From IMG/VR virus record IMGVR_UViG_3300029049_000006: DNA of 64,000 nucleotides; one strand, given 5' to 3'. The notes beneath the pieces were generated by a model. It made no database searches. It saw only the letters and a list, made by a program, of their open reading frames with translations, and was not told the origin of the DNA. Position numbers and translations under genes: made by a program. This document shows positions 7,003 to 41,433 of this stretch, in pieces (the stretch's first letter is position 1; every line of letters starts with the position of its first letter). This DNA comes from a virus.

Positions 7003-7019
7003 TTTGCAATGATTGCAAA
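7003..7019. repeat. intergenic palindrome TTTGCAATGATTGCAAA, copy 2
   Basis: Perfect 17-bp palindrome + T7. 22 nt after the polymerase stop. Confidence 0.9.
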
Positions 7020-7047
7020 TTTTTTTCGTGAATTGAATACTTTTATC

Positions 7048-7124
7048 TTGCAATTTTCATTTTTTAGTGTTATAACAAACCCATCAAAGGGCGAAAGCCC
7101 TGAATCAATAAAAACATCACCAAT
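7048..7124 (+). promoter_or_regulatory. sigma70-like promoter (-35 TTGCAA, 17-bp spacer, -10 TATAAC) + structured leader
   Basis: TTGCAA-N17-TATAAC. Leader CATCAAAGGGCGAAAGCCCTGAATC (GGGC/GCCC stem) followed by an A-rich tract to ATG 7125. Confidence 0.55.
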
Positions 7125-8393
7125 ATGAGCAAGACCGAAATTGATATTACCAAGCCGCTTAATCTGGCTGACCGCCAAGAACTCCGTTTTACCGGATACG
7201 CCACGCAGAACAATGACCCGAAGCTGTCTCCGGGAGATGTCATCTATTTTCTGAAACAGGCGCGGGACGATAAAAACATCCCTGTTTATGACGTTGCCAC
7301 TACCAAAAAGGGCAAGGTAGCCGTGGAAAGTCTTTACGCTGACGAATTTGAAGTTGTGGATGCGGATTCCACGCCGGAAGCCGCCCCGGTTGCGGCCCCT
7401 GCCAAAAAGAAAAAGACGGAATTCAAGAAGGTGGAGGAACCCGGCGAAGAGCAGCCCGCCCCCAAGGCTAAGAAGGCCAAAGCCGTCAAAGCGGAAGCCG
7501 CCCCTGCTAAGAAGACCAAGAAGGAAAAAGTGAAGGCCGAAGCCCCCGTGGAAGTGCAGGAGCCGCAGGAAGTCCAGGAACCTGCAGCTGAGGCTGAATC
7601 CGTTCCCGCCGTCCAGCCCGAAGCCGTCAAGGAAGTTGAAGACATCAAGCCCGCCTCCACTCCGGAATTGGGAATGGATGCCGTAACCCTTAACTTGATT
7701 CAGGAACACGGCGGGAATGCCTGTGCCGCCGCCCTTGCCATTGCCAAGGATTCTGAGGCTAAGCGATTCCTTCTTGGCGGCGTGCTGCTGTACATCCAAA
7801 AAACGAAAGTTTACGAGGAAGAAAAGGATTCTGCCGGAGTTCCCCGCTTCACCGGGCAAAAGGGCTTTGCCATGTTCTGCGAGCAGTATATCGGGCTTTC
7901 CTATTCTTCCGCAAAATTGTACCAGCGCATCTACGCTAATTTCACCAGCATGGGCCTCGGTGTTGAGGATTTTCGGAGAGTGGGCACGGCTAAGGCCCGT
8001 GAAATTGTGCAAATGATTGAGCTGGACTTTTCCAAGGCCGACGTTGAGGAGGCTATCCATATCGGCGAGACGAAAACGCACGAAGAACTGCACTCCCACG
8101 TAAGTTCAAAAATGCAGGATGCCGAAATTGAGGGGCATGGATTACGCGATAAGGTTAAATGCACGCTCTACAAATTTGAGGTGTTTGCTGACCAGGAAGA
8201 CATCATCAACGCCGCCATCCGGCTGGCAATGGACAATGGAGACATTAAGGACACCGACCAGAACGCCCTTGGGCGCGCGTTTGTTTCCATCTGTTCCGAC
8301 TATTTGCAGGCGTACAGCAAAGTGGCGCAGCCGGTGGTAGATGAAACCGAAGAATTTCAGGAATCTGTAGCCCAGGAATCCGTCAATGCTTGA
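7125..8393 (+). CDS. protein with lysine/alanine/proline-rich histone-H1-like linker
   Basis: 422 aa. Central low-complexity region AAPAKKKKTEFKK...PKAKKAKAVKAEAAPAKKTKKEKVKAEAP, reminiscent of H1 / AlgP KPAA repeats. Conserved N- and C-terminal domains of unknown function. Behind a promoter-leader module. Confidence 0.5.
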   Translation: MSKTEIDITKPLNLADRQELRFTGYATQNNDPKLSPGDVIYFLKQARDDKNIPVYDVATTKKGKVAVESLYADEFEVVDADSTPEAAPVAAPAKKKKTEFKKVEEPGEEQPAPKAKKAKAVKAEAAPAKKTKKEKVKAEAPVEVQEPQEVQEPAAEAESVPAVQPEAVKEVEDIKPASTPELGMDAVTLNLIQEHGGNACAAALAIAKDSEAKRFLLGGVLLYIQKTKVYEEEKDSAGVPRFTGQKGFAMFCEQYIGLSYSSAKLYQRIYANFTSMGLGVEDFRRVGTAKAREIVQMIELDFSKADVEEAIHIGETKTHEELHSHVSSKMQDAEIEGHGLRDKVKCTLYKFEVFADQEDIINAAIRLAMDNGDIKDTDQNALGRAFVSICSDYLQAYSKVAQPVVDETEEFQESVAQESVNA

Positions 8394-9111: not shown

Positions 9112-9128
9112 TTTGCAATCATTGCAAA
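9112..9128. repeat. intergenic palindrome TTTGCAATCATTGCAAA, copy 3
   Basis: Perfect copy + T7 after the RNase H stop. Confidence 0.9.
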
Positions 9129-9157
9129 TTTTTTTCTCAAAAAAGATTCTTTTTCTC

Positions 9158-9248
9158 TTGCAATTCATCAAAAATAATGCTAAATTGTGTTCATCAAAGG
9201 GAGGAAAGCTCCTAAGAATAAAAAACCTAAATTAGAAAGACCAAAACA
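9158..9248 (+). promoter_or_regulatory. sigma70-like promoter + structured leader
   Basis: TTGCAATTCATCAAAAATAATGCTAAATT gives -35 / N17 / extended -10 TGCTAAATT. Leader hairpin AGGAGGAAAGCTCCT. Confidence 0.55.
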
Positions 9249-11172: not shown

Positions 11173-11269
11173 TTGCAATAAAAAAATATCATGCTTAATA
11201 TTTCATTGTTCCCATCATGGAACATCAGTAAAAAAACAATACTCCCATTGGAGACATTAAAAAAATAAT
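11173..11269 (+). promoter_or_regulatory. sigma70-like promoter upstream of the SSB gene
   Basis: TTGCAA-N17-TGCTTAATAT. AT-rich leader. No palindrome and no leader hairpin. Confidence 0.45.
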
Positions 11270-17538: not shown

Positions 17539-18104
17539 ACATCCTCGGCATTGACCCGTCCCTGACTGCTACCGGGCTTTATTTGCGGGAAACCGGGCTT
17601 ATGGCCGCCCCGGAATCCACGCTGATTGCCCCAAAAAATTTGAGGGACATGGAGCGGCTGTGTTTTATCCGCGACTTCCTTCTCGGATTCATCAACAGAG
17701 ACCGGGCGTTTTCTCCTGAATTGGCAGTCATTGAAGGGTATGCAATGGGAGCGAAAACCCATACACATGACCTCGGCGAAGCCGGGGCTATGCTGAAAAC
17801 TGCGGTTTACGAGGCGGGAATTGACCTGCTGATAGTCCCGCCCGCCACGCTGAAAAAGTTCATCACGGGAAGCGGGAACAGCAAAAAACAGGTGATGATG
17901 GTGGAAGCGCTTTCCCGGTATCATGTCAAAATTACCGATGATAATATTTGTGATGCGTTCTGCCTGACACATTTTGGGGAAGCCTGGTACGCGGCTAATG
18001 CTTTTGGCCGTACAGCGGGAAAAATCGGCATCACAAAAAGCCAGTATGCCTGCCTGTCCGCCGCCCGGCTGGTTCCTGGCCGCAAACGGTCGTCTCGGAG
18101 ATAA
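17535..18104 (+). CDS. RuvC-like Holliday junction resolvase
   Basis: ILGIDPSLTATG. AVIEGYAMGAKTHTHDLGEAGAMLKTAV. KKQVMMVE. NICDAFCL. Follows the RuvC pattern (ILGIDPG..G, AxEx.F, QVQxMV, DAADAL). Confidence 0.8.
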   Translation: MNILGIDPSLTATGLYLRETGLMAAPESTLIAPKNLRDMERLCFIRDFLLGFINRDRAFSPELAVIEGYAMGAKTHTHDLGEAGAMLKTAVYEAGIDLLIVPPATLKKFITGSGNSKKQVMMVEALSRYHVKITDDNICDAFCLTHFGEAWYAANAFGRTAGKIGITKSQYACLSAARLVPGRKRSSRR

Positions 18105-18131
18105 CCGGCTGCCGGTTTTTCCTTTTTCCAA

Positions 18132-18148
18132 TTTGCAATCATTGCAAA
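18132..18148. repeat. intergenic palindrome, copy 5
   Basis: Perfect copy + T7 after the RuvC stop. Confidence 0.9.
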
Positions 18149-18176
18149 TTTTTTTCGCTGATTGTGTAATTTTATC

Positions 18177-18273
18177 TTGCAATTTCTAAAAAATAATGCT
18201 AAATTACATTCATCAAAGGGAGGGAATCCCTGAGAGAAAAAACCTAAAAACCTAAAAAACCTGTTAGACTAAA
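18177..18273 (+). promoter_or_regulatory. sigma70-like promoter + structured leader
   Basis: TTGCAATTTCTAAAAAATAATGCTAAATT. Leader CATCAAAGGGAGGGAATCCCTGAGAG, then an AACCTAAAAACCT tract. Confidence 0.6.
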
Positions 18274-18861
18274 ATGAATGCGATTGAAACCATGAGCCAG
18301 AAAGAGCTGAAAGAATATTACGCCGCTCTCACTTGCGGGGAAGGAACCAAGGCGGCTAAATGGACTATATCCGGTGCTTTTGAGATTGTAAAATTGTCTG
18401 ACGGAAAACTTTATAAAATAGAAAAGCACCAGCTGGAAACTTCCTTCTGCTTTGGCTACGACGTAACGGAAGAATCGGAACGCCGCGCGGATTCCCTGGC
18501 AGCGGACGCTAAAACTTATGAGGCGTTTTTGGCCGCCAATCTGGAAACCATAGCGCGGGACATTAACCGGCTGGAAAAGGCTATCGCCAATGGCAATACA
18601 CCGCAGTTCGACGGCACGAAAGCCTTCTACTCCTGCAACGCTTATGTCAACGGACCAGATACGGCGGTATGCGTATTTTTCATGAACTGGATGAACGATT
18701 TCCGGGGTATGGAAAACACACACCTTACTTCCGTGTCCGACCTTGAGCTGATTATTGCCGCCTTGAAGCGCAAGGCGGAAAACGTCCGGAAGCGTTGCCT
18801 TTCCTACTGGAAAAAATACGGGGCCAGCAAGCTTAATGTCTGGACGTATTACCGTGATTGA
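18274..18861 (+). CDS. hypothetical early protein
   Basis: 195 aa, behind a promoter-leader module. N-terminus MNAIETMSQ is similar to the 20062 gene. Confidence 0.5.
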   Translation: MNAIETMSQKELKEYYAALTCGEGTKAAKWTISGAFEIVKLSDGKLYKIEKHQLETSFCFGYDVTEESERRADSLAADAKTYEAFLAANLETIARDINRLEKAIANGNTPQFDGTKAFYSCNAYVNGPDTAVCVFFMNWMNDFRGMENTHLTSVSDLELIIAALKRKAENVRKRCLSYWKKYGASKLNVWTYYRD

Positions 18862-18864
18862 ACA

Positions 18865-18881
18865 TTTGCAACGATTGCAAA
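18865..18881. repeat. intergenic palindrome, copy 6 (TTTGCAACGATTGCAAA)
   Basis: One mismatch + T7. Confidence 0.85.
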
Positions 18882-18910
18882 TTTTTTTCTCAAAAAGATT
18901 CTTTTTTCTC

Positions 18911-19003
18911 TTGCAATTTCTAAAAAAGAATGATAAATTGAGTTCATCAAAGGGAGGGAAACCTCCCAAGAATAAAAAACCTAAAAACCTGAAAGACAAG
19001 ATT
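18911..19003 (+). promoter_or_regulatory. sigma70-like promoter + structured leader
   Basis: TTGCAA-N17-TGATAAATT. Hairpin GGGAGGGAAACCTCCC. Confidence 0.55.
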
Positions 19004-19216
19004 ATGAACAACAAAGAAACATTCTATCTGGTTGAAGTTTACCACCTCGGAACTGCTGTTGGCAGCCTTATTTCCCTTGACCATGTGCACCGTTGCAAGT
19101 CCCTGGAATCTGCGAAAGACTTTGGTTCCATCATGAAAGAAAAAAATGGGTGGTTTGAAGTAACGGAAATTACTTCCAAAGGCCGTTCCATTGTGTTTGA
19201 CTCCCGCAACAACTAA
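19004..19216 (+). CDS. small hypothetical protein
   Basis: First ATG at 19004 (MNNKETFYLVEV...) after a promoter-leader. The track ORF starts at 18836 inside the leader. Confidence 0.4.
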   Translation: MNNKETFYLVEVYHLGTAVGSLISLDHVHRCKSLESAKDFGSIMKEKNGWFEVTEITSKGRSIVFDSRNN

Positions 19217-19228
19217 CCCGTCAGGACG

Positions 19229-19417
19229 ATGAAAGTACAGGCTAAAGTTATTACCGAACAGGAGTGCAAATGGCACGGGGTTGCCCTTCAAGATATGGAA
19301 GTGGCGGAAATCCGGGTTGCTGCCTGGTTCCTTACTGAAAAGTCTTGTGGAATAAAAAACCGTCAATATGATTTTGAAGGGGTCAAGGCTAAAAAAAAGC
19401 GGCATCCTCGGAAGTAA
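19229..19417 (+). CDS. small hypothetical protein
   Basis: 62 aa ATG ORF. Confidence 0.3.
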   Translation: MKVQAKVITEQECKWHGVALQDMEVAEIRVAAWFLTEKSCGIKNRQYDFEGVKAKKKRHPRK

Positions 19418-19448
19418 CGCAAATGCTGGTTCTGGGAGTCGTTTTTTC

Positions 19449-19562
19449 ATGAAATCAAAAGCACAAGCCGCCATTGATATCCTTCTCAAAATGCGGAACA
19501 CGGAATGGGAAAATCGGTATAAAGAAAACGGCATTAAGTTTGAAACCTGCGTGAATATCTAA
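19449..19562 (+). CDS. small hypothetical protein
   Basis: 37 aa from ATG 19449 (MKSKAQAAIDILLK...). Ends just before a hairpin. Confidence 0.2.
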   Translation: MKSKAQAAIDILLKMRNTEWENRYKENGIKFETCVNI

Positions 19563-19656
19563 AATCCTCAAGCCCCTCTTTGGAGGGGCAAGACCCCTCC
19601 ACCGCAACCAGAAAAACTTTTCAGCAGTAAAAATTTTCGGTGGTACTAATTAGGTT

Positions 19657-19704
19657 CTGCCCCCTTTTCCGGCATTCCGTTGCTGGGAAGGGGGCAGTTT
19701 TTTT
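19657..19704 (+). terminator. rho-independent terminator
   Basis: CTGCCCCCTTT ... AAGGGGGCAG stem followed by TTTTTTT. Confidence 0.6.
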
Positions 19705-19913
19705 GCGTCAATTTGTAGTGGTATTTTTAATTTTAGCGCACAAATAACTATATATTGCGGCTATTTTCGTAAACGGTTGACTTTGAGAAAAATAAACTCT
19801 TGAACCGGTTTGGCGGCAAGTTAAGATGCCGGAGGTTAAACACTAGTTTGGCTGTCTTCTATCTTTTCGGCCCCTAATTCGGAGTGATGCCCGGATTAGG
19901 GGCCTTTTTTTTC
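19705..19913 (+). ncRNA. candidate small non-coding transcription unit (ORF-less, bounded by two intrinsic terminators)
   Basis: About 165 nt with no ORF over 30 codons between the terminators at 19657-19704 and 19869-19913. No tRNA cloverleaf seen. Confidence 0.25.
19869..19913 (+). terminator. rho-independent terminator
   Basis: GGCCCCTAAT ... ATTAGGGGCC stem followed by T9. Confidence 0.65.
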
Positions 19914-19918
19914 TTCAA

Positions 19919-19935
19919 TTTGCAACCATTGCAAA
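19919..19935. repeat. intergenic palindrome, copy 7 (TTTGCAACCATTGCAAA)
   Basis: One mismatch + T7. Immediately after a GC hairpin terminator. Confidence 0.85.
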
Positions 19936-19964
19936 TTTTTTTCTCAAAAAGATTCTTTTTTCTC

Positions 19965-20061
19965 TTGCAATTCAGAAAAAATAATGCTAAATTACATTCA
20001 TCAAAGGGAGGGAATCCCTAAGAGAAAAAACTTAAAAACCTAAAAAACCTGTTAGACTAAA
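19965..20061 (+). promoter_or_regulatory. sigma70-like promoter + structured leader
   Basis: About 110 nt virtually identical to 18177-18273. Confidence 0.6.
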
Positions 20062-20331
20062 ATGAATACCGTAACCGAAACTGAAATCAAGTTAGGCTCC
20101 AAAATTAAACCGACTTGGAAGCTTTCCAGGGTGCGTGCGATTGTCGGAAAGGAAACCGAAAAGGCAATCCGTATTGACCTCGATTATAGCAGCAGGTCTG
20201 AATATCATTGGCTTCCAAAAAGCCTTATTGCAGCTATCGAAGAAAAAGAGGACGGAACATGGGCCGGGGATTCTTACATTACTCTTCCCACCTGGTTTTG
20301 CATCGAAAATGGCTTTGTGACCGAACAATAA
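20062..20331 (+). CDS. hypothetical early protein
   Basis: 89 aa. Preceded by a promoter-leader identical to the one at 18177-18273. Confidence 0.5.
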   Translation: MNTVTETEIKLGSKIKPTWKLSRVRAIVGKETEKAIRIDLDYSSRSEYHWLPKSLIAAIEEKEDGTWAGDSYITLPTWFCIENGFVTEQ

Positions 20332-24451: not shown

Positions 24452-24468
24452 TTTGCAATCATTGCAAA
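24452..24468. repeat. intergenic palindrome, copy 8
   Basis: Perfect copy directly after a stop codon. Confidence 0.9.
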
Positions 24469-24496
24469 TTTTTCCCGGCAATCCTGATTTTTTCTC

Positions 24497-24586
24497 TTGC
24501 AATTTGTCAAAAAGAATGCTAACTTATATTCATCAAAGGGAGATAAAACCTTAAAAATAAAAAACCTAAAAACCTGTTAGAATAAG
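24497..24586 (+). promoter_or_regulatory. sigma70-like promoter + leader
   Basis: TTGCAA-N17-TGCTAACTT. Leader CATCAAAGGGAGATAAAACCTT. Confidence 0.5.
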
Positions 24587-24859: not shown

Positions 24860-24918
24860 TTTTTGCATTGCGGAGGGGGGAACAATCCCCCTCCGAGAAT
24901 AAAAATCTGACAGCAACT

Positions 24919-25727: not shown

Positions 25728-25817
25728 TTGCAATTTCTGAAAAATAATACTAAAGTACATTCATCGGGGGGGAGAGAAAAACCCTGAGAATAAAAACCTG
25801 AAATATAATAAAACACG
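25728..25817 (+). promoter_or_regulatory. sigma70-like promoter + leader (no upstream palindrome)
   Basis: TTGCAATTTCTGAAAAATAATACTAAAGT. Leader CATCGGGGGGGAGAGAAAAACCCT. Confidence 0.5.
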
Positions 25818-27388: not shown

Positions 27389-27405
27389 TTTGCAACGATT
27401 GCAAA
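27389..27405. repeat. intergenic palindrome, copy 10 (TTTGCAACGATTGCAAA)
   Basis: One mismatch + T7. Confidence 0.85.
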
Positions 27406-27433
27406 TTTTTTTCTCAAAAAAGATTTTTTTCTC

Positions 27434-27524
27434 TTGCAATTTCTAAAAAAGAATGATAAATTACATTCATCAAAGGGAGGGAATCCCTGAGAGAAAAAAA
27501 CAAAAAACCTAAATTACTGATACC
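27434..27524 (+). promoter_or_regulatory. sigma70-like promoter + structured leader
   Basis: Same consensus as 18177. Hairpin AGGGAGGGAATCCCT. Confidence 0.6.
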
Positions 27525-28014: not shown

Positions 28015-28394
28015 TGGTAATGAAAACTCCTAAATGCTGGATGTGCGGACAAAAGCTGACCACAAACTGGGTACCTTCTGTGGTGGATTATCACACCGGA
28101 TGCTACCGCGTTGGATGCCGTCATTGCGGCTGGGCAACTTATCTTACAAGTGCAACGGAGGAACAGGCGATAGATTCCGCGAAAGAATTCATGGCGAAAA
28201 TTCCTCCCACCATGCGGGTGCGGGAAGGGGACACCGTCCTCATGCGGTTCGGGGAAGAGGCCAAAAGCGTAAAAATACGAGCCGTAACTAATACGACCTT
28301 ATTTGAAACCGATGAAGGAATCGTATCCCCGGACAGCATCGAAAAATGGCCCTGGGAACTTGAAGAAGAGGAAGGGGGAGAATGGGAAGAATAA
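28014..28394 (+). CDS. zinc-ribbon protein, WPWELE family paralog
   Basis: CWMCGQ...CRHCGW zinc ribbon. IPPTMRVREGD. WPWELEEEE C-terminus. Shared with the 40395 and 40736 genes. Confidence 0.5.
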   Translation: MVMKTPKCWMCGQKLTTNWVPSVVDYHTGCYRVGCRHCGWATYLTSATEEQAIDSAKEFMAKIPPTMRVREGDTVLMRFGEEAKSVKIRAVTNTTLFETDEGIVSPDSIEKWPWELEEEEGGEWEE

Positions 28395-28648
28395 TGAAAC
28401 GGAACCCTCACATCATCGTCCAGCAGGTTTGCCCCATGAAAAAAATTGACAATGGGAAATACGAAGTGCAGGCCGCGATTGTGCACCACAAAGGGATTAT
28501 CGCCCGATTTCGCATGGAGTACCCCACGAAACGGCATGCCCGGTGGGCGCAGCACCTTATTTGCACGACAAGGAATCATACCCGCAGGCGAGCATTTGGT
28601 GAATTAAAGGCTATCATTGACGGGAAGGTGGCACATAGTGCTGTTTGA
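28382..28648 (+). CDS. hypothetical protein
   Basis: 88 aa. Start uncertain (ATG 28382 or 28394). Confidence 0.35.
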   Translation: MGRIMKRNPHIIVQQVCPMKKIDNGKYEVQAAIVHHKGIIARFRMEYPTKRHARWAQHLICTTRNHTRRRAFGELKAIIDGKVAHSAV

Positions 28649-28689
28649 CCTTGCACAGCTTATAATTTTAAAACAGAGAAAAGAAGAAA

Positions 28690-29010
28690 ATGAAACTGAC
28701 GCCTGAACAGAAAGTATTTATCGAATACGGAAAAGCAAAGAAAGCTCTTGAGATAGCTAAAAAGCAATTAGCGAAAGAAATGCGCCGGTATTTATCCCGG
28801 CATCAGGCGCGGGATTATAATAATATTGATATTTTAATCCGGGATGTCTGGCGGAAGCGTGCCGCGTGCAGGGACTGGGTGGCAGTCCCTCTGGCGAATC
28901 GTAATTGTGAGAATTGCGCTAATAGCGTAGTTAATCCGATTCCGGAAGTTTGCAAGATTTGCATGATGACTAACTTTTCCGGCTGGGAACCTATAAAATG
29001 GAATAAATAA
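28690..29010 (+). CDS. TPEQ/Cys4 family paralog 1
   Basis: MKLTPEQKVFIEYGKA.... C-terminal RAACRDW...NRNCENC....PEVCKICM...W.P. Confidence 0.5.
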   Translation: MKLTPEQKVFIEYGKAKKALEIAKKQLAKEMRRYLSRHQARDYNNIDILIRDVWRKRAACRDWVAVPLANRNCENCANSVVNPIPEVCKICMMTNFSGWEPIKWNK

Positions 29011-29011
29011 A

Positions 29012-29362
29012 ATGACACCTGAGCAAGAAACATATAAAGAATATGGAAGGGCGCAAGAAGCCCTTCATCAGACAATCAAGGAGATAAAAAAAGAATCCTT
29101 TTTTACTTTTGGGAAGCCATATTGCAAGCTTACGAAGTTGGAAAGGGAGAGTATATCCCATGCTTTGGGTTTATGCGATAAAGTCCGCTATGTCCGCAAA
29201 ATGCGTACCGCATGCCGGACATGGGCATTCACGCCCATGAACAAACGCTATTGTGATGACTGTCGATATTACTGCACATCCGTCTCGGATGGCCCCTGCA
29301 GAGAATGTTGCCGGCGGCTGGAACCTGTAAATTGGGAACCTAGAAAGGAGAACAAAAACTAA
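29012..29362 (+). CDS. TPEQ/Cys4 family paralog 2
   Basis: MTPEQETYKEYGRAQ.... RTACRTW..NKRYCDDC...GPCRECC...NWEP. Confidence 0.5.
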   Translation: MTPEQETYKEYGRAQEALHQTIKEIKKESFFTFGKPYCKLTKLERESISHALGLCDKVRYVRKMRTACRTWAFTPMNKRYCDDCRYYCTSVSDGPCRECCRRLEPVNWEPRKENKN

Positions 29363-29733
29363 TGAAAATGACACCTGAACAAAGAGCCTTTTTTGAGTAT
29401 GGGAAAGTACAAGGAGTTGTCGAAGATACGGAAATCGAGATTAACCTTGCCTCCCCTAAAGGGGGTATGCCGCCTATAACGTTTAATAAGGAGTTTTCTT
29501 TAAAAGAGGGCAAAAAACTAGCCGAGAAAAAACAGGAGATATGTCTGGGCTGGGCAATTCCATACCGCAAAAGGCGGTGCGTAAACTGCCTGCACCGGAA
29601 AACGCGTTCATGTGACCCTCCATGTGATTTGTGCTTCCGTAATGTTAAAGGCGGCTTATTCGACTGTTCGGACAGGGAGGGTAAAGAAGAATATGGGGAT
29701 TTCTGGGAGCCGGAAACCGGGAAGGAAGAATAA
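29362..29733 (+). CDS. TPEQ/Cys4 family paralog 3
   Basis: MKMTPEQRAFFEYGKVQ.... RKRRCVNC...DPPCDLC...FWEP. Confidence 0.5.
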   Translation: MKMTPEQRAFFEYGKVQGVVEDTEIEINLASPKGGMPPITFNKEFSLKEGKKLAEKKQEICLGWAIPYRKRRCVNCLHRKTRSCDPPCDLCFRNVKGGLFDCSDREGKEEYGDFWEPETGKEE

Positions 29734-29734
29734 A

Positions 29735-29848
29735 ATGATTGATGCAATCTCCAATATGCTGGGCATGGCTCTCATATTTACCATAGCGTACTTGTCTTAT
29801 TTAATCGGCAGGCAGGACGCTGGCAAAAATGAAAAAAGAAAGAAATGA
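29735..29848 (+). CDS. small hydrophobic peptide (37 aa)
   Basis: MIDAISNMLGMALIFTIAYLSYLIGRQ.... ATG 29735 within track ORF 29612-29848. Confidence 0.25.
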   Translation: MIDAISNMLGMALIFTIAYLSYLIGRQDAGKNEKRKK

Positions 29849-32666: not shown

Positions 32667-32988
32667 TTTCAGAGACCGCGCCCAAAAGCTTTTTTCCTTT
32701 ACTTTTCACTTTTCCGGCACAAACAATACCAGCCCATGAAGTTCCACAGCCTTTCCATGCTTTTTACGCTCCGTGGCCCTCCCCGCCCTGTTTTTCAGCT
32801 TGTCCCCCAGGCAATCCGCGAACGGTCGGATGCGCGAGGACGGGAACGCATCATTTCCCGCGTCTGAAATAAATGGCTTTCACCATCAGGCGCAATCTCC
32901 GCATTTCCTTTTTCTGTTGCCTTCGCCGGATTGCCCCCCCTCGTCAGGAAGGGAACGGCAAACCGTAACCATAAACAAAAAGATAGAA

Positions 32989-33864
32989 ATGACAGTTCAA
33001 ACCTTACCGGCAACCGTGCCGGACAGCGTTTCTGCGACCTTGCGCGTCGTCATGAAGCCCGTGGAATCAATTCACCCCTACGAAAATAACCCCCGCTACA
33101 ACGACAGCGCGGTTCCCTACGTCAAAAACTCAATTCAGGAGTTCGGCTTCAAGGTTCCGATTATCGTCGATGAAGCCGGAAGCATTGTCTGCGGTCACAC
33201 GAGGTACAAGGTGGCCCTGGAATTGGGCATGAGCCATGTGCCTTGCATTGTCGCTTCGGATTTGACCCCAAAGCAGATTCAGGCGTTCCGCCTTGTTGAT
33301 AACAAGGTGTCGGAGTTTTCAAGCTGGGATTTTTCCAAACTTGAAATTGAGATAGGGGAGCTGGATGCCGAATTTAATCTTGATGACTTCGGTTTTTTCT
33401 CCGATTCAGAGCGGGCGGGAAGCTCGCCGGCGGATGTGGGCAGTGCCGCAGAAATGCAGGATGATACTGCGAGGGATGACCGGAATATCTATACAGGACG
33501 CATCATTACTCCGGTTTATGAAATTACCGGGGATTGTCCAAAAACCGAAGAGCTGGTTGACCGCACCAGAGCGGAATCCCTGCTGGAAGAGATTGACCGG
33601 ACCCCAGGGCTTCCGGATGCCGTGCGTGACTTTTTGCGTATTGCCGCCATGCGGCACTATGTCCTGCATTTCGACAGGATAGCCGAGTTTTACGCCCATG
33701 CGGTCCCTCCTGTGCAGCGGCTCATGGAAAACTCCTGTCTGGTCATTATTGATTATGACCGCGCCATTGAACTTGGATATGTGCAAATGGCACGTGCCCT
33801 GGCCGATGAATATGACCGAGAATACCCGGAAGGGGAAGAACAGGAAGGAGGCAGCGAATCATGA
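32989..33864 (+). CDS. ParB N-terminal (ParB/Srx nuclease-like) domain protein, paralog A
   Basis: FGFKVPIIVDEAGSIVCGHTRYKVALELGMSHVPC is a ParB-NTD signature (GHxR). Acidic linker. Conserved C-terminal domain shared with 37018-37860 (TPVYEITGDCP...FLRIAAMRHYVLHFDRIAEFYAHA). ATG 32989, and the track ORF begins at 32773. Confidence 0.6.
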   Translation: MTVQTLPATVPDSVSATLRVVMKPVESIHPYENNPRYNDSAVPYVKNSIQEFGFKVPIIVDEAGSIVCGHTRYKVALELGMSHVPCIVASDLTPKQIQAFRLVDNKVSEFSSWDFSKLEIEIGELDAEFNLDDFGFFSDSERAGSSPADVGSAAEMQDDTARDDRNIYTGRIITPVYEITGDCPKTEELVDRTRAESLLEEIDRTPGLPDAVRDFLRIAAMRHYVLHFDRIAEFYAHAVPPVQRLMENSCLVIIDYDRAIELGYVQMARALADEYDREYPEGEEQEGGSES

Positions 33865-34796
33865 TGCGGCACTCTGATTTCTGCGTCCTGATTATTTCCC
33901 ATGGACGGGCCGGGAGGGTGAAAACCCTGAACGCGCTTGAGCGTTTTGGCTATAGCGGCCCCTGGTACATTATTATCGACAATGAGGATTCACAGGCCGG
34001 GGACTACCTTAATTGCTATGGGAGTGACCACGTTGTTGTTTTTGATAAACCCCTTGAGGCATCCAGGCTGGACATAGCGGATAATTTTACAGGCCGTCTT
34101 GGGCGCAAAAGTACCGTGTACGTACGCAATGCGAGCTTTGACATTGCCCGCCGCCTGGGATTCCGGTATTTCATGGTGCTGGACGACGATTACGACTATT
34201 TCCGTTTCGTATTGGACAGCAACCGCCGCTATACTTGCCGGCGCTGTACCTGTCTGGACACAATCCTTGACATCTGCCTCGATTACTTCACCCGTACACC
34301 GGCCCTTGCCACCATAGCGTGGCTTCAAGGCGGCGACCTGCTGGGAGGGGCCAACTCCAACAGCCTTTTCAGCCTCCGGCGAAAAGCCATGAACAGTTTT
34401 ATCTGTGACACGGAACGCCCCTTTTCCTTCATGGGCCGGTTTAATGAAGACGTGAACACCTACATCACTCACGGAAACCGGGGAGTGATCATGTTCTCAA
34501 TTACGGAATTGGCGCTTAACCAGGCCAGCACCCAGCAGACGACGGGAGGGATGACGGAAGCCTACCAGGAAAACGGAACCTACGTGAAATCGTTTTACAG
34601 TGTCATGCATATGCCGTCTGCGGTGAAAATCCGGACAATGGGCGAACATTACCGAAGAATCCACCATGCTATTACATGGAATAATTGTGTGCCGAAAATC
34701 ATCCGTCCGGAGTACCAGAAACCGGATATTGTGCGGGGTGACAGAAGAAAACGCGGCAGGAGCCGAAAAAAACTGCTTGCAATTCCGGCCCCTTAA
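33861..34796 (+). CDS. GT-A-fold glycosyltransferase-like protein (DxD), paralog A
   Basis: FCVLIISHGRAGRV (cf. GT2 N-terminal vsIIIPTYNR). DxD YFMVLDDDYDYF. Paralog of 37906-38769. Confidence 0.5.
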   Translation: MMRHSDFCVLIISHGRAGRVKTLNALERFGYSGPWYIIIDNEDSQAGDYLNCYGSDHVVVFDKPLEASRLDIADNFTGRLGRKSTVYVRNASFDIARRLGFRYFMVLDDDYDYFRFVLDSNRRYTCRRCTCLDTILDICLDYFTRTPALATIAWLQGGDLLGGANSNSLFSLRRKAMNSFICDTERPFSFMGRFNEDVNTYITHGNRGVIMFSITELALNQASTQQTTGGMTEAYQENGTYVKSFYSVMHMPSAVKIRTMGEHYRRIHHAITWNNCVPKIIRPEYQKPDIVRGDRRKRGRSRKKLLAIPAP

Positions 34797-34909
34797 TAGG
34801 ATATTGCGATTGTTACCCGCCCAACGGGAACCCGACAACAACCAATAATAGCTGCTATCCAGAAAAGACAAGCCCCCGGCCCCTTCCTGCATCCCACCCG
34901 CGTATCGGA

Positions 34910-35308
34910 TTGCCTGTCATGTGTACTGCAGGAAACCGGGGGCTTGTTTTCTTTCCCCCCTCAGGGTATAACGGCGGCGTTATGATTGCCTTGAATACTC
35001 CTATTGCCACCATACCGGGGCGCCGGTACTGCATCACCACAGTATCTTCCGTCCAGGTGATTGCCGTCATTGACGACGAAGAGTTTGATTTGCTGGGGGG
35101 CCTTCCCATTACTGGCCAGGCGCAATTTGTCGCCCCCACGGACCACATTGAGGTGCGTGACGCGTCAGCCCCGGAAGAAGGGGCGGCGGCCAGCGCATCG
35201 GAATCATCCCCAGAAACGTCAAGCGTCATGTTTGACGGCTCTGCAACGCCCCTTGCCGGAGACGCGGCTTCCGTGTCCGGGAGCATCGTCGAAATTGTAC
35301 GCAGTTGA
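34910..35308 (+). CDS. hypothetical protein
   Basis: Track ORF of 132 aa. Probable start is a later ATG (MIALNTPIATI...). Ser/Ala-rich. Confidence 0.3.
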   Translation: MPVMCTAGNRGLVFFPPSGYNGGVMIALNTPIATIPGRRYCITTVSSVQVIAVIDDEEFDLLGGLPITGQAQFVAPTDHIEVRDASAPEEGAAASASESSPETSSVMFDGSATPLAGDAASVSGSIVEIVRS

Positions 35309-35567
35309 CAAGCTATCCCGGATTTGGCAGGATGCTCCCTGCATGCGCGACGCGCTTCAAAGGCGTGGATTGAGGCGATAAGGGCATGCTTTCGCAGGGT
35401 GTATGTGTGGGAGACGTAATGAGCTCTCCCCTTCCCCTGCGGCAAACGGGAACAACAAAAAAGGGGATGCCCTTCCTTTTTTCCAGGATGGCCGCAGTTT
35501 TCCGCTGTGGGGAAAGAAGGAAGGGTATTTTTCCGCCTCCAATTTTTCTTTTTATTCTTTGTGCCTG

Positions 35568-36359
35568 ATGCAGATTCCTCCCCCCCCTGATAAATTCCGA
35601 ATGCACTGTATCATTCCCCTGAAAGCACGCTCTATGCGTTGCCCAGGAAAAAATTTCAGAACCTGCAACCCGTATCTTTCCGGGGGCCTGATTCCGCTGT
35701 GGGAAGTGTCGGCCAGGTACGTCAGGGGCGAGGGATGGGAACCAGTTATTTCCTGTGACAGTCCGGAATTGTTGCATGATATTTCCCGGCGCGGATATGA
35801 ACGCACTGTTTTATGGCATCCTGACCCGGAATCCCCATATATGCAGGGCCACATCAGTCAGGTTGCCGCGCAGATTAACGCCGGGGATTCCGACCTGCTT
35901 TGCGTAGTCCAGGCAACTTCCCCGGTAAGACGGCCCGGACTGCTTCGGGACATGCACACCTTGATGTCATCCGATACCAATATTCAGGTGGCTTTTACAG
36001 GGGAACGCCTGAAAATTTGCGGCATCCTGAATGGCTCTCTTTTTGGGCAGGATGAAAGCCAGTCCGCCCGGCACTGGTACGACCACTATGACGGGGCGCT
36101 TTTACTACTGCGCTATGATACTCTGAAACGCTGCCCCCCCCGAACAGTCGTGCATCCAGGGCTGCTGTCCGGCCCCAGTGATAAAGTGGCCGTGTTTTAC
36201 CAGACCCTGCCTTGGTCATTCCAAATCGACACGGAAGACGATTATTCCTTTTATCTGCAACTGCGGCGGCCTGATGCGGAAAAACAGTCAGCCTTCCGCA
36301 AACGGTCGAACCCGTACCGGGTATATACAAAAAGCGCAGCCCCTGATGAATTGGCATGA
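35568..36359 (+). CDS. CMP-sugar synthetase-like cytidylyltransferase (NeuA/KdsB/PseF CTP_transf_3 family)
   Basis: CIIPLKARSMRCPGKN (cf. IIPARGGSKGIPxKN). VQATSPVRRPG (cf. LQPTSPLR). A C9 homopolymer lies between ATG 35568 and the conserved core, so the start and frame there are uncertain. The track ORF starts at 35403. Confidence 0.55.
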   Translation: MQIPPPPDKFRMHCIIPLKARSMRCPGKNFRTCNPYLSGGLIPLWEVSARYVRGEGWEPVISCDSPELLHDISRRGYERTVLWHPDPESPYMQGHISQVAAQINAGDSDLLCVVQATSPVRRPGLLRDMHTLMSSDTNIQVAFTGERLKICGILNGSLFGQDESQSARHWYDHYDGALLLLRYDTLKRCPPRTVVHPGLLSGPSDKVAVFYQTLPWSFQIDTEDDYSFYLQLRRPDAEKQSAFRKRSNPYRVYTKSAAPDELA

Positions 36360-36955
36360 TTGTATTGGTAGGAAATGCCCAGGAATCCGAACACCGGCTT
36401 AAAGACTGCTCCGCTTTTATTGATTCCGGCAAGCCCCGGCTGGTGGTGAGGGTGTCGAAAATGTGCAACTATGATTCCGGAAAAACCGGAACGCGCTGTG
36501 ACTGGGTGTTCCTCAACCCTAATCCCATGTACTGGACCTTTCCGCCAGAGCGCCGCCATTGGAATGTGCTTGCCGGGGCCAGTAAAATCATCATCACCTA
36601 TCCCCCTCCCGGAAGCCTGAAAGAAGGGCCTTGCATTCCTCCGTACTGGCAAAAGGAAGAATACCGGTTTCTGCACCAGCACCCTTTTCTGGAATATTTG
36701 CCGGAGGCGGTGTTCCGGGAAGGGATGGACCGGCGGCTGACGACGTTCGGATTTGCCCTGTGGGTGCTTTCGCGGCGTTTCCCGCATGAGCAGATAGCCC
36801 TGCATGGGTGCATTACCTCGCAGAATGCGTGGCGCCGTGTCCGCTGGTGCCCCTGGCACAATGGCGTTGGCGAGTTTGCCCTGTATGCCAATCTGTCCCG
36901 GAACGGTCGGATTTTCAGGCTGGACGGCGGCGAATTATGCTTTAATGAGGATTGA
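36356..36955 (+). CDS. hypothetical protein
   Basis: 199 aa. Start overlaps the upstream stop (ATGA). N-terminus MIVLVGNAQ is Rossmann-like. Confidence 0.4.
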   Translation: MIVLVGNAQESEHRLKDCSAFIDSGKPRLVVRVSKMCNYDSGKTGTRCDWVFLNPNPMYWTFPPERRHWNVLAGASKIIITYPPPGSLKEGPCIPPYWQKEEYRFLHQHPFLEYLPEAVFREGMDRRLTTFGFALWVLSRRFPHEQIALHGCITSQNAWRRVRWCPWHNGVGEFALYANLSRNGRIFRLDGGELCFNED

Positions 36956-36979
36956 AACCATGCTAAGAATCCATGAGAA

Positions 36980-36996
36980 TTTGCAATCATTGCAAA
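36980..36996. repeat. intergenic palindrome, copy 12
   Basis: Perfect copy between the 36356 gene and ParB-like paralog B. Confidence 0.9.
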
Positions 36997-37017
36997 TTTC
37001 AAAAATCATTTTTACAC

Positions 37018-37860
37018 ATGGAAATTGTAGATATTGCCGTAAAAGACCTGGTTCCTTACGATAAAAATCCGCGCCGTAATGATGAAGCGGCCGTCAAGGT
37101 GGCGGAATCCATTAAACAGTTCGGCTTTAAGATTCCTCTTGTGGTTGACCGCAATAATGTTGTTGTCTGCGGACACACCCGTTTAAAGGCCGCAAAAAAG
37201 TTAAAGCTTAAAACTGTTCCTTGCATCCGGGCTGACGATTTGTCGGAAGACCAAATCAAGGCGTTCCGTCTGGTGGACAATCGGACGGCGGAAATCGCCG
37301 AATGGGATTTTGCCCTTTTAGAAGAGGAACTGGCGGACGTGCAGCTTGACATGACCGCCTTTGACTTCGGTGGGCTTTTGCCGGAAGAAGAGGGTGGGGG
37401 CGAAAACGGTCAGACCTCGGCGGGGGCCGGAAATGGAAGGGAGGAAGAAAGTGCATTACCGGATTCGCAAACTGCGGAAAATATGTACACGCAGCGCATC
37501 GTCACTCCGGTTTATGAAGTTACCGGGGATTGCCCGGAAGTGTCTTCTCTGGTGGACAAGGGCAAAGCGGAAGCGCTGCTGGAATCCATTGACCAAGCCC
37601 AGGAACTCCCGGATGATGTGCGGGAGTTTTTACGCATCGCCGCTGCCAGGCATTATGTTTTGCATTTTGACCGCATTGCCGAATACTACGCCCATGCCCC
37701 GGCCCATATTCAGCGGCTCATGGAAGATTCCTGTCTGGTCATCATTGATTTTAATAAAGCCATTGAGCAGGGATATATCCGCATGTCCGAACGGTTGGCC
37801 GCGCTGGCCAGCATAGACGAACAGGGCGCAACGGAAGAAGAAGACGAAGCGGGCGAATAA
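37018..37860 (+). CDS. ParB N-terminal (ParB/Srx nuclease-like) domain protein, paralog B
   Basis: FGFKIPLVVDRNNVVVCGHTRLKAAKKLKLKTVPC. Same C-terminal domain as paralog A. ATG 37018. The track ORF starts at 36973 and reads through palindrome copy 12. Confidence 0.6.
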   Translation: MEIVDIAVKDLVPYDKNPRRNDEAAVKVAESIKQFGFKIPLVVDRNNVVVCGHTRLKAAKKLKLKTVPCIRADDLSEDQIKAFRLVDNRTAEIAEWDFALLEEELADVQLDMTAFDFGGLLPEEEGGGENGQTSAGAGNGREEESALPDSQTAENMYTQRIVTPVYEVTGDCPEVSSLVDKGKAEALLESIDQAQELPDDVREFLRIAAARHYVLHFDRIAEYYAHAPAHIQRLMEDSCLVIIDFNKAIEQGYIRMSERLAALASIDEQGATEEEDEAGE

Positions 37861-37905
37861 CACAGGCCGCTTTGATTTTTTTACCGCAATAACTTTTCTT
37901 TTTTT

Positions 37906-38769
37906 ATGCTGACGCATTCCGATTTTTGTACGTTTATTTTGTCTCATGGGCGGCCAAATAACATCAGAACTCTGCACCCATTGTTAAACACCGGAAACTA
38001 CAGCGGCCCCTGGTACATCGTCATCGACAATGAGGACCCCACGGCGGAAACCTATTATCAGCTTTACGGCTCCAACCGGGTAATCATGTTTGACAAGGAG
38101 GCCGAAGCCCGCCGTCTGGATATTGCAGATAATTTCATCCACATGAGCCGCAAGACTATTACCTATGCTCGTAATGCCTGTTATGACATTGCCAGAAACT
38201 TAGGCTACACGTATTTTTGGCAACTGGATGACGATTATTGCCGGTTCCGGTACGTAACCGACCAGGCCGGAAAATACGTGTACCACAGCATCCGCCACAT
38301 GGACGAGGCGTTGAACGCGACGCTTGATTATTATAAAAGCGTTCCTTCCCTGACCCTGCTGTCCTGGATGCAGGGCGGGGATTTACTGGGCGGCGCCAAC
38401 AGCCAGTCTTTAACCGTGGTGAAGCGAAAAGCCATGAACAGCTTTATTTGCTCTACCGAGCGCCCCATAAAGTTCCGGGGCCGGATGAATGAGGACGTAA
38501 ACACCTATGTTTCCGAGGGCAACCGGGGAAAACTCATTATGATGGCGAATTGTGCCGGCATTTTACAGACCCCCACCCAGATTAACGACGGAGGAATCAC
38601 GGAACTTTACAGGTCTTGCGGCACTTACACCAAAGCAATGTACACTGTGATGCATATGCCCTCAGTAACTACAGTGGGCATGATGCACAGCACTTTTCCC
38701 CGGATTCACCACACGATAAATTGGAACAACTGCGTTCCGAAAATTATCCGGCAGGAGCTTAAAAAATAG
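37906..38769 (+). CDS. GT-A-fold glycosyltransferase-like protein (DxD), paralog B
   Basis: FCTFILSHGRPNNI. YFWQLDDDYCRF. Collinear with paralog A throughout. Confidence 0.5.
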   Translation: MLTHSDFCTFILSHGRPNNIRTLHPLLNTGNYSGPWYIVIDNEDPTAETYYQLYGSNRVIMFDKEAEARRLDIADNFIHMSRKTITYARNACYDIARNLGYTYFWQLDDDYCRFRYVTDQAGKYVYHSIRHMDEALNATLDYYKSVPSLTLLSWMQGGDLLGGANSQSLTVVKRKAMNSFICSTERPIKFRGRMNEDVNTYVSEGNRGKLIMMANCAGILQTPTQINDGGITELYRSCGTYTKAMYTVMHMPSVTTVGMMHSTFPRIHHTINWNNCVPKIIRQELKK

Positions 38770-38867
38770 AGCTTTTCCGGGAAGAAATACCCTTCACCTA
38801 TCGGCCCTGCTGGTCTAATATCCAGACAGGGCCGCAGTATATCTTTCTCTTTTCTCTCTTTTCTCAA

Positions 38868-38884
38868 TTTGCAACCATTGCAAA
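38868..38884. repeat. intergenic palindrome, copy 13 (TTTGCAACCATTGCAAA)
   Basis: One mismatch + T7. Confidence 0.85.
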
Positions 38885-38912
38885 TTTTTTTCTCAAAAAG
38901 ATTCTTTTTCTC

Positions 38913-39000
38913 TTGCAATTCAGTAAAAATAATGCTAACTTATATTCATCAAAGGGAGGGAATAACCCTCCTGCAACAAAAAACTGAAAGTTAAAACATA
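38913..39000 (+). promoter_or_regulatory. sigma70-like promoter + structured leader
   Basis: TTGCAATTCAGTAAAAATAATGCTAACTT. Hairpin GGGAGGGAATAACCCTCC. Confidence 0.55.
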
Positions 39001-39255
39001 ATGAAGACTGCAACCACCATTTACCGTTGGACCGCCAAAACCTCTTCCAGATGCCTTGGCCGCTATTATACCGCTAGCACCCTGCCTGAAGCCATTAAGG
39101 CGGGAAAAGAATTTGTGACCCGTGAGTTTCATGGCATAGGTTCCGTACTTATTGAAGCTTCCCCGGACGGAGGAAAAACCTGGTACGTTAGCCGCGAATG
39201 CAGACGCGACCGTGACACCCAGATGCTTTGGACAGCGGAAGTTTTTTATGTATAA
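39001..39255 (+). CDS. small protein, YKWTA-family paralog 2
   Basis: See the 27525 gene. Behind a promoter-leader module. Confidence 0.5.
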   Translation: MKTATTIYRWTAKTSSRCLGRYYTASTLPEAIKAGKEFVTREFHGIGSVLIEASPDGGKTWYVSRECRRDRDTQMLWTAEVFYV

Positions 39256-39340
39256 GCCATCCCCCCCGGCTGGAAATCATATCTGGCCGGGGAATAAGCC
39301 TGACTTCATTATTATTTACTTAAATCATAAAGAAAAAACC

Positions 39341-39631
39341 ATGAACAGAAACGTAACTAAAACCGTAACCCACCATATTCTTCCCTGTCTGGGCCTTCTG
39401 ATTGTTGAAGCCGTCTCCTGCGTGCTCGCCGTCTATGGCATTGTTACCCTGCTTGGATATGACGTGCCTTCCCTTTACTGGATATTGTCCGGGATTCTAA
39501 AAGCTGTTGCGCTGGTAATATTGCTTCTCATCAGCGTGGGAAGCCTGGTGGGTATTGTGGGTGTGGCAGTGCATCTCTTTTCCTCAAATTGCCGTTGCCA
39601 GGAAGAAGACAGTGGTGAAATTAACCGATAA
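39341..39631 (+). CDS. small membrane protein
   Basis: ATG 39341. Two hydrophobic helices (ILPCLGLLIVEAVSCVLAVYGIV, ILKAVALVILLLISVGSLVGIVGVAV). Confidence 0.4.
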   Translation: MNRNVTKTVTHHILPCLGLLIVEAVSCVLAVYGIVTLLGYDVPSLYWILSGILKAVALVILLLISVGSLVGIVGVAVHLFSSNCRCQEEDSGEINR

Positions 39632-39646
39632 TCCTCCAGACAAAAA

Positions 39647-40207: not shown

Positions 40208-40213
40208 TTGACC

Positions 40214-41077: not shown

Positions 41078-41080
41078 ATT

Positions 41081-41374: not shown

Positions 41375-41433
41375 ATGATTTTCCGGCAAACCACGCTATG
41401 AACGGAAAAACATAAGAAAAAAGGAATCATGCA

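Follow-up and report, generated by a model that had tools for sequence, protein, structure and literature searches.

PeSLs (promoter-early stem-loop cassettes) of T4-like phages are repeated intergenic cassettes in which a strong early promoter of the sigma70 type, preceded by an AT-rich region, is combined with a stem-loop made of a G-run and a C-run (Arbiol et al., 2010, PMC2839356), and they sit before ORFans and recombine with one another (PMC2839356; Comeau et al., 2014, PMC4122927). Here we describe a promoter and leader cassette of related build in a 64,000-nt stretch of viral DNA (IMG/VR record IMGVR_UViG_3300029049_000006; the whole stretch is called the window in the following), with the copy at 18177-18273 as the focal module. 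Judged by its sequence, the cassette is probably a variant close to the PeSLs rather than a member of them. Our preferred reading, in which our confidence is evenly balanced, is that these are promoter cassettes for the host polymerase, homogenised by recombination, which would provide each transcript with a stabilising or insulating 5' hairpin and with an A-rich region for translation initiation independent of a Shine-Dalgarno (SD) sequence.

Repeated cassettes with a predicted promoter, and their palindrome

A search of the window with an nhmmer profile built from the aligned modules returned 11 cassette copies (E 2e-13 to 2e-21), every one of them in + orientation, and, as the following hit (E 0.03), a promoter-less hairpin with a fragment of the GAGAAUAAAAA motif at 24871-24912. 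A sequence-only reading of this DNA had counted about 12 uses of a module of promoter and structured leader, which agrees with 11 copies plus this one promoter-less fragment. As in PeSLs, the unit is an intergenic cassette of about 100 bp that is repeated many times and carries a promoter which is, at the level of its sequence, of the sigma70 type. The copies are found at 7.0, 9.1, 18-27, 38.9, 47.6 and 53.9 kb, and thus outside any single early block too, with seven of the modules falling into the two blocks of low GC (18-29 and 38-42 kb), and at least four are directly preceded by canonical terminators (18103, 19869, 27330 and 53803). Also like PeSLs, they stand directly upstream of small ORFans: the first gene after the module encodes 56-195 amino acids in ten of the eleven cases and 422 in the other, and all eleven are without known function (no Pfam match; PHROG matches all of "unknown function"), which bears out the earlier description of the genes served as mostly small and functionally unassigned; the role in early expression or host takeover presumed for them there is a guess.

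The focal module has the layout first described for it, with TTGCAA at 18177-18182, a 17-nt spacer, TGC as extended -10 at 18197-18199 and TAAATT at 18200-18205 (predicted promoter 18177-18205, + strand), followed by a hairpin and an A-rich tract; CATCAAAGGGAGG is located at 18211-18223 and the ATG at 18274. The -35 sequence TTTTnTCTTGCAATT is common to all 11 copies, the spacer between -35 and -10 measures 17 nt in ten of them and 16 nt in one, and TGn stands before the -10 in nine. Six copies have TAAATT as their -10, the remaining ones TAACTT, TATAAC, TATGAT or TAAAGT (TAnnnT in 10/11). Exact matches to TTGCAA-N14-TGNTAAATT number six, and CATCAAAGGG, with nine exact matches on the + strand, begins 5 nt past the -10 in nine copies. 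With these hexamers, a spacer of 17 ± 1 nt, TGn, TAnnnT and a purine start 6-8 nt further on, the modules have the layout of extended -10 sigma70-type promoters. Their earlier designation as near-consensus sigma70 promoters was too strong, each hexamer agreeing with the E. coli consensus at four of six positions (8/12 in total) and a generic sigma70 scanner calling none of these sites. The seventh nucleotide after the -10 is an A in 10/11 copies (the A of CATC, in a pyrimidine-purine, Y-R, context), and a predicted start at this position fits the start-site rule of Akkermansia muciniphila, for which Cappable-seq revealed -35/-10 promoters with Y-R at -1/+1 and showed 10% of the starts to be leaderless (PMC4782308).

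The geometry TTGCAA-N17-TAnnnT is also found in intergenic regions of phages whose family-A DNA polymerase (PolA) is 43-48% identical to that of the window. TTGCAA is 2-6 times over-represented in five of six distant-relative loci, and the six distant relatives retrieved have the TTGCAA promoter type in common, but not the leader; TTGCAA-N17-TAnnnT therefore looks like the working promoter type of this group. We regard the cassette promoter, which is well supported at the sequence level, as a putative promoter of the host RNA polymerase with its primary sigma factor. Strong early promoters of phages (T4 early, T5 N25, and T7 A1 with its +1 AUCGAGAGGGA) combine an extended -10 with UP-like A/T tracts and a purine-rich start. 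The cassettes resemble them in the succession of -35, 17-nt spacer, TGn and -10, in phased upstream T/A tracts and in the purine-rich AUCAAAGGGAGG, and differ from them in having TTGCAA instead of TTGACA as -35, TAAATT as -10 and a palindrome built of the same hexamer.

Four of the distant relatives (L095, L096, L217 and L219; PolA 43-47%) carry a tandem TTGCAA-N4-TTGCAA upstream of their TTGCAA-N17-TAnnnT promoters and have A/C-rich leaders, often with AGACC directly before the ATG, and in L096 one promoter region of about 150 nt is present three times. In the window, TTGCAA-N14-TGG-TAATAC at 52129-52167 ends 7 nt ahead of the ATG at 52165 and is a candidate for a leaderless transcript.

An invariant 21-bp palindrome upstream of the promoters, AATTTGCAAYNATTGCAAATT, is additional to the PeSL design. 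It has 19 exact copies in the window (677-63731; 0.3 expected), all of them intergenic, and its core TTGCAA-N3-TTGCAA, the hexamer of which is identical to the -35 hexamer of the promoters, is found 19 times exactly and 22 times with at most one mismatch (0.31 expected). The modules had been said to lie downstream of palindromes, which holds for nine of the 11, those at 25728 and 47622 being without an adjacent one, and in all nine the centre of the palindrome is located 71-73 bp upstream of the predicted +1. In the focal module the core occupies 18133-18147 (no strand assigned), centred 72 bp upstream of the predicted +1, and an AT-rich T-run/A-run spacer resembling an UP element (18148-18176, + strand) connects it to the -35. 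The length of this spacer (29-30 bp) is kept among modules and its sequence differs by module subtype; with its T7, A5 and T6 tracts it corresponds to the AT-rich upstream region of PeSLs.

Ten palindromes stand without a promoter (14303, 26193, 32651, 36981, 43005, 47328, 49814, 56068, 60719 and 63717), 1-35 nt past the stop codon of the gene before, which one of them overlaps, and 11-380 nt ahead of the next ATG, and no sigma70-like -10 is found downstream of them. We considered whether the right half of the palindrome could serve as -35 at these lone sites and rejected this, as no consistent -10 follows. A main role of the palindrome as terminator was likewise rejected, the predicted stability being only -5.5 to -8.4 kcal/mol, several copies having no U-tract and canonical terminators preceding some of them. 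The palindrome is probably a protein-binding site, to which a dimeric regulator would bind 72 ± 1 bp upstream of the start. A scan of a genome collection gave at least 120 single matches in unrelated taxa, with none in Akkermansia among the matches listed, and neither supports nor excludes a regulon of the host.

Variation of the cassettes can be followed in one 83.6-kb IMG/VR contig (IMGVR_UViG_3300014804_000005) and several human-gut contigs, which are 95-98% identical to the window and are therefore of the same species (strains in what follows). The focal module and the copy m19920 (19920-20061, + strand) had been described as identical over about 110 nt including the first codons of their genes, and as the outcome of a recent duplication. 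Between the -35 and ATGAAT the two are about 95% identical, 18177-18279 and 19965-20067 differing at 5 of ~103 nt with only the codons ATG AAT in common, and orthologous genes of the strains carry leader, spacer or tail types of other modules. Upstream of the gene at 9249 the leader is of the GGAG/CUCC type or, with another tail, of the AGGGA/UCCCU type; that of the gene at 18274 is either the focal one or one of the AGGG-(8 nt)-CCCU type, and the promoter spacers are mosaic. This swapping of leader and spacer blocks at orthologous loci may be a further likeness to PeSLs, and it looks like ongoing recombination between copies, which would both homogenise and reshuffle the cassettes and which fits better than one recent duplication.

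Some of the contigs (L066, L093, L056 and L025) lack segments corresponding to 19295-19484, 28137-29843, 37810-42435 and 41400-41788 of the window, the third being a 4.6-kb deletion that takes out an entire low-GC block together with the module m38869. Indels bounded by cassettes, as in PeSLs, were considered for these four deletions and rejected, since the breakpoints are not located at modules.

A hairpin at the start of the leader

The MFE (minimum free energy) structure of every copy holds one hairpin of 4-8 bp that starts 2-7 nt from the predicted +1; in the focal module (predicted +1 and hairpin 18212-18231, + strand) it is AGGGA-GGGAA-UCCCU at 18217-18231, with optional U2-A and C3-G closing pairs. 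When the first 13 nt (the 5' arm) were held fixed and the following 27 nt were shuffled, each of ten distinct 3' arms was found to pair better than chance (p 0.0005-0.04 per copy; combined about 1e-12, a value inflated by the shared ancestry and non-independence of the copies). Pairs were tabulated from the individual MFE structures and not with RNAalifold, because a MAFFT alignment of the leaders left the sliding 3' arms out of register. Against an almost invariant 5' arm, the 3' arm shifts register or lengthens: in all canonical copies G7-G9 are bound to C or, occasionally, to U, position 10 forms A-U in seven variants and C-G in one (the copy at 7004), a few G-C pairs are changed to G-U, and the helix is extended variably toward its base or its loop, the loops being 4-12 nt long and purine-rich without a consensus. 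The stem had been described as covarying between copies. Pairing potential is indeed kept through different 3' arms, but the adjustment is one-sided, with position 10 as the sole double compensatory change, and the leader stem, in which the 5' arm stays fixed and the 3' arm is fitted to it, is not a case of classical covariation; the near-invariance of the 5' arm therefore leaves a test of the R-scape type with almost no power. Polymorphisms of the strains in the hairpins comprise loop changes, G-C to G-U changes (in m53871 of one strain by a C-to-U substitution) and whole-block swaps, and the hairpin is kept in all.

In 13/13 leaders the first 32 nt fold (mean -8.2 kcal/mol), and the 32 nt that adjoin the ATG are essentially free of structure (mean -0.7 kcal/mol, eight being exactly 0.0; Wilcoxon p 2e-4). 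These 13 include two leaders of unrelated sequence, both on the + strand, one belonging to a non-homologous promoter of the same class at 11173-11269 (T-run, TTGCAA, N17, TAATAT; hairpin GUUCC-CAUCAU-GGAAC) and the other to a non-homologous promoter candidate at 34777-34918 (TTGCAA-N17-GATATT; the leader opens with the hairpin ACCCG...CGGG). In the promoter-less intercistronic unit at 24871-24918 (+ strand; arms CGGAGGGGGG/UCCCCCUCCG, -20 kcal/mol) both arms differ from those of the modules yet pair, the same GAGAAUAAAAA motif and a leader follow, and the hairpin ends 23 nt before the ATG at 24919. This unit, the two unrelated leaders, the strain polymorphisms and the contrast between the two ends of the leaders each back the hairpin independently.

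The pairing might nevertheless have no function at the RNA level, the inverted repeat being kept by descent, by gene conversion, by templated (quasi-palindrome) repair or as a recombination motif of the DNA, which we consider rather unlikely. Such an origin would accommodate the facts that the copies are segment-exchanging paralogues, that classical covariation is nearly absent and that the combined permutation p presumes an independence which fails, and the PeSL authors speculated that GGGG...CCCC is a recombination target. It would be harder to reconcile with some ten different 3' arms that all pair in varied registers and with varied loop lengths, or with a layout common to two unrelated leaders and to a promoter-less copy with both arms changed, and a strict contrast of structured 5' and free 3' parts in 13/13 leaders is hard to reach by drift.

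The individual copies (all + strand) differ in this hairpin and in details of the promoter. The most divergent one, m7004 (7004-7124), has its palindrome at 7004, the -35 at 7048, the -10 TATAAC at 7071, the hairpin AGGGC-GAAA-GCCCU with the compensatory pair at 7088-7101 and the ATG at 7125. It is followed by m9113 (9113-9248; GGGAG-GAAAG-CUCCU at 9199-9213, ATG 9249) and m18866 (18866-19003; GGGAGG-GAAA-CCUCCC at 18952-18967, -12.8 kcal/mol, ATG 19004). The hairpin of m24453 (24453-24586) is the weakest, AAGG-(9 nt)-CCUU with -2.9 kcal/mol, that of m27390 (27390-27524) is of the focal type, and that of m38869 (38869-39000) is GGGAGGG-AAUAA-CCCUCCU at 38954-38972 (-11.9 kcal/mol). The two modules without an adjacent palindrome are m25728 (25728-25817), which also has no TG, a -10 TAAAGT and the 5' arm CAUCGGGGGGG (strain variants CAUCGAGGGG and CAUCGAAGGG), and m47622 (47622-47722), an exact promoter match with a degenerate 5' arm UUGACGGGAGG, a weak two-part hairpin and its closest palindrome 294 bp upstream. 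The 16-nt spacer is that of m53871 (53871-54011), which has the -10 TATGAT and the hairpin AAAGGGAG-(12 nt)-CUCCCUUU.

Stem-loops at the 5' terminus stabilise mRNA in the E. coli ompA leader (hp1) and in the B. subtilis aprE and ermC leaders. The leaders of the cassettes share with these a short hairpin near the 5' end, followed by a single-stranded initiation region, and a stem and loop the sequence of which can vary; they differ in having 5-6 predicted unpaired nucleotides before most stems. According to our preferred reading, an AT-rich UP-like spacer would be followed by a promoter for the primary sigma factor of the host (TTGCAA, 17-nt spacer, usually TGn, TAnnnT), and the purine-rich initial transcribed AUCAAAGGGAGG would have a double role, as start region of a strong promoter and as 5' arm of the hairpin. 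The hairpin would shield the mRNA from decay that depends on the 5' end and would prevent downstream sequence from being paired by the G-rich start. The last 25-40 nt of the leader, A-rich, G-poor and structure-free, would serve SD-independent translation initiation.

Several observations weigh against this reading. The predicted +1 was placed from the geometry of the -10 alone, and given this +1 the 5-6 unpaired 5' nucleotides of most copies exceed the few with which, as Bouvet and Belasco are said to have found for E. coli in 1992, an mRNA is still protected. Taken over the whole leader, the z-scores of individual copies reach modest values (-0.2 to -3.3). The hairpin of m24453 and the split stem of m47622 are both weak, and the leaders of the distant relatives are mostly short and have no hairpins. 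Promoter-less hairpins also occur 23-25 nt upstream of an ATG inside operons (24871-24895, 35353-35377, 49837-49854 and 54197-54224), all GC-rich and without U-tracts, the one at 54197 reaching -25 kcal/mol (z = -5.5); the role of the hairpin may accordingly not need a primary 5' end, and the constant distance suggests a general rule of a hairpin followed by a free initiation region. The assignment of the host to Akkermansia (see below) depends on one 239-bp match of 91% identity. Finally, CATCAAAGGG is conserved beyond the need of a stem, so that a sequence-specific role is possible. The conservation of AAAGGGAGG beyond its structure may reflect its place as initial transcribed sequence, since strong early promoters of phages, T7 A1 and T5 N25 among them, typically have purine-rich starts.

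Conservation exceeding the need of pairing would also be expected if the hairpin and its flanks (CAUCAAAGGGAGG ... RAGARWAAAAA) were the site of a trans-acting factor that times early expression, either by antitermination as at nut/boxB or by a RegB-like cut at GGAG, the target motif of T4 RegB, an explanation that we hold to be possible but unlikely. RAGARWAAAAA follows the hairpin in seven units (15 occurrences on both strands, 0.8 expected), some loops are GNRA-like or purine pentaloops (GAAA, GAAAG, GGGAA), and the cassettes are separated by terminators among genes that are all co-oriented. The lambda nut boxB consists of a conserved 5-bp stem and a GNRA-like pentaloop of fixed sequence and acts together with boxA and an N-type protein. 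The cassette hairpins share with it their small size, their proximity to a promoter, a purine-rich loop and a genome punctuated by terminators, but a loop reader of the lambda N type would not tolerate loops of 4-12 nt without conserved sequence on stems of 4-8 bp in varied registers. No boxA-like element was noted, without a search aimed at boxA, and Pfam scans of 101 open reading frames (ORFs) of the window revealed no phage sigma factor, RNA polymerase, helix-turn-helix regulator, antiterminator (N- or Q-like) or RegB-like protein, although small divergent ones could escape such scans. Rfam 15 gave no match at gathering score in the whole window, with only sub-threshold chance hits at 18100-20100.

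Every copy has a G-rich/C-rich stem-loop, in likeness to the G-run/C-run stem-loops of PeSLs, and those of PeSLs terminate transcription near early promoters, some of them just downstream of the -10 (PMC2839356). The hairpin could by this analogy be a PeSL-type terminator or attenuator of incoming transcription, or a barrier at the 3' end of the upstream mRNA, rather than a feature of the cassette transcript. Strong promoter-less hairpins are found between cistrons too, and in the relative L094 a true terminator with the same stem (CAAAGGGAGGG-UAACG-CCUCCC followed by U8) is present at 7094-7130. The stem-loop of the window differs from that of PeSLs in lying within the transcribed leader with an A-rich 3' flank and no U-tract, which makes a role as terminator unlikely, and we consider this explanation improbable. 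The hairpins are followed by RAGARWAAAAA and not by a U-tract, as would be expected of rho-independent terminators and as is the case for all evident terminators of this phage, and a terminator scan calls other sites; moreover, with the predicted +1 upstream of the hairpin the RNA of the cassette itself would be ended too, and several modules are already preceded by separate canonical terminators.

In L094, the closest relative by PolA (48%), the stem of this terminator equals the m18866 leader hairpin over 11 nt and occupies a roughly syntenic intergenic place. We also considered whether, in read-through RNA, the U-rich sequence upstream pairs over a long distance with the A-rich leader, and rejected this as inconsistent between copies.

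Proposed translation initiation independent of Shine-Dalgarno pairing

Of 89 phage genes, 17% have an SD-like 4-mer between -20 and -4, and the figure for random positions within genes is 15%; upstream of the starts A is enriched, most strongly at -3. For these phage genes, SD pairing is evidently not what the host depends on. The leaders of the modules consist of 57% A and 8% G, in agreement with the proposal that the ATG is served by an A-rich tract, and that of the focal module (18232-18273, + strand) is A-rich, G-poor and structure-free (-0.6 kcal/mol for the last 32 nt), with three AAAAACCU-like repeats and no SD, whereas PeSLs end with one. The same proposal had taken AGGGAGG for an SD sequestered in the stem. 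It was right in that no start codon is located at SD distance from it, but with no enrichment of SD motifs the question of sequestration becomes moot, and AAAGGGAGG is therefore not to be read as a sequestered ribosome-binding site. Bacteroidota are reported, by Baez and colleagues in 2019, to use SD-independent, A-rich "Kozak-like" initiation regions. The phage genes resemble these in their unstructured A-rich upstream region, in the A at -3 and in having no SD; the probable host is, however, a verrucomicrobium, for which no such description was found in the literature searched.

A polypurine near the 5' end need not be a site of translation initiation: phage SP82 early RNA and the cryIIIA STAB-SD have 5' polypurines that act as stabilisers. 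By analogy, AAAGGGAGG could stabilise the 5' end by binding the 3' end of 16S rRNA without a translation start, with the 3' arm tuning its access, and like those elements it is an SD-like polypurine that has no start codon in range; here it is near-invariant and lies 4-13 nt from the predicted 5' end of presumptive early mRNAs. We nevertheless find this very improbable, since the motif is base-paired in the MFE structure of each copy, the phage shows no SD usage, which suggests that the anti-SD of the host is little used or unavailable, and two non-homologous leaders with a 5' hairpin have no SD-like sequence. We judge SP82/STAB-SD, lambda boxB and the targets of RegB to be weaker analogies than the design of the 5' stem-loop stabilisers.

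Palindrome and leader might also act together as a timing device with two keys, in which an operator at the palindrome is combined with an SD-like arm caged by a variable anti-SD-like arm, a scenario that appears quite unlikely to us. The first key, the palindrome at -72, which is also present alone after ten gene blocks, could switch the co-oriented genome between expression classes, and the second would be a switch addressed by ribosomes or a nuclease in a host to which SD pairing is otherwise of no account. Were this so, Verrucomicrobiota would provide either a new use of the 16S anti-SD or a new shut-off of the RegB type, and PeSL-like mobile regulatory cassettes would have an independent origin.

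The phage and its probable host

Every plausible gene of the window is on the + strand. Among the encoded proteins are a DnaB-type helicase, the family-A DNA polymerase, an SNF2/DEAD helicase, a RecA-like protein, TerL, a portal and a tail protein, as well as RNase H and RuvC, and we regard the phage as probably an uncultivated gut phage of the virulent type. The identity of PolA homologues falls abruptly from 99% to at most 48%, and the cultured phages closest by protein share 43% (PolA, Aeromonas phage HJ05) and 33% (TerL). In contrast to the carriers of PeSLs, this phage is thus not T4-like (PolA ≤43% and TerL ≤33% to cultured phages), and its host would belong to another phylum. Two pattern scans of viral contigs and one protein-anchored scan for divergent copies of the cassette recovered only the strains 95-98% identical to the window.

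The sole nucleotide match to a cultured phage is a 239-bp segment (28394-28632) with 91% identity to Chambord, a temperate phage of Akkermansia, in which it corresponds to a hypothetical gene adjoining a RusA-like resolvase; no such match was found in the rest of the window. Because of this single match we consider Akkermansia to be probably the host. Literature searches for a virulent Akkermansia phage or for a promoter consensus turned up only the Cappable-seq study of A. muciniphila (PMC4782308).

Other parts of the window merit mention. Two paralogous pairs of a ParB_N-domain protein and a TET-associated glycosyltransferase are located at 32830/33861 and 37018/37906, and further matches in the regions 32830-38769 and 49880-56033 are to a PAPS reductase, an APS kinase, an EF-Tu-type GTPase (CysN-like?), a sulfotransferase (49880) and more glycosyltransferases, most of the matches not being assigned to individual ORFs. 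The genes of the two regions look like a set for DNA hypermodification or for sulfation and glycosylation. Between 19563 and 19919, 357 nt contain no ORF and three hairpins, with strong U-tract terminators at 19661-19694 and 19869-19904, and could represent a gene for a small RNA or the remains of a decayed gene. Homopolymers of G or C of at least 7 nt number 14 and those of at least 8 nt ten (about 3 expected by our estimate), with positions including 915, 15960, 27796, 35580, 36134, 41893, 46130, 46468, 46520, 49228 and 54236; several are directly upstream of start codons and some apparently within ORFs, and they could be slippage-prone sites or hotspots of assembly errors.

The cassettes make up an internally replicated set of candidate promoters and 5' leaders. 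They come from a phage the host of which, probably Akkermansia, is a gut bacterium of medical interest that is genetically difficult, and they may become useful as expression parts. Recombining cassettes of promoter and stem-loop would, on this evidence, not be confined to T4-like phages, and an SD-free, A-rich initiation design with a 5' hairpin would be documented in this lineage. The palindrome, which is used 19 times and is fixed at -72 in nine modules, appears to be the more promising starting point for new regulatory biology.

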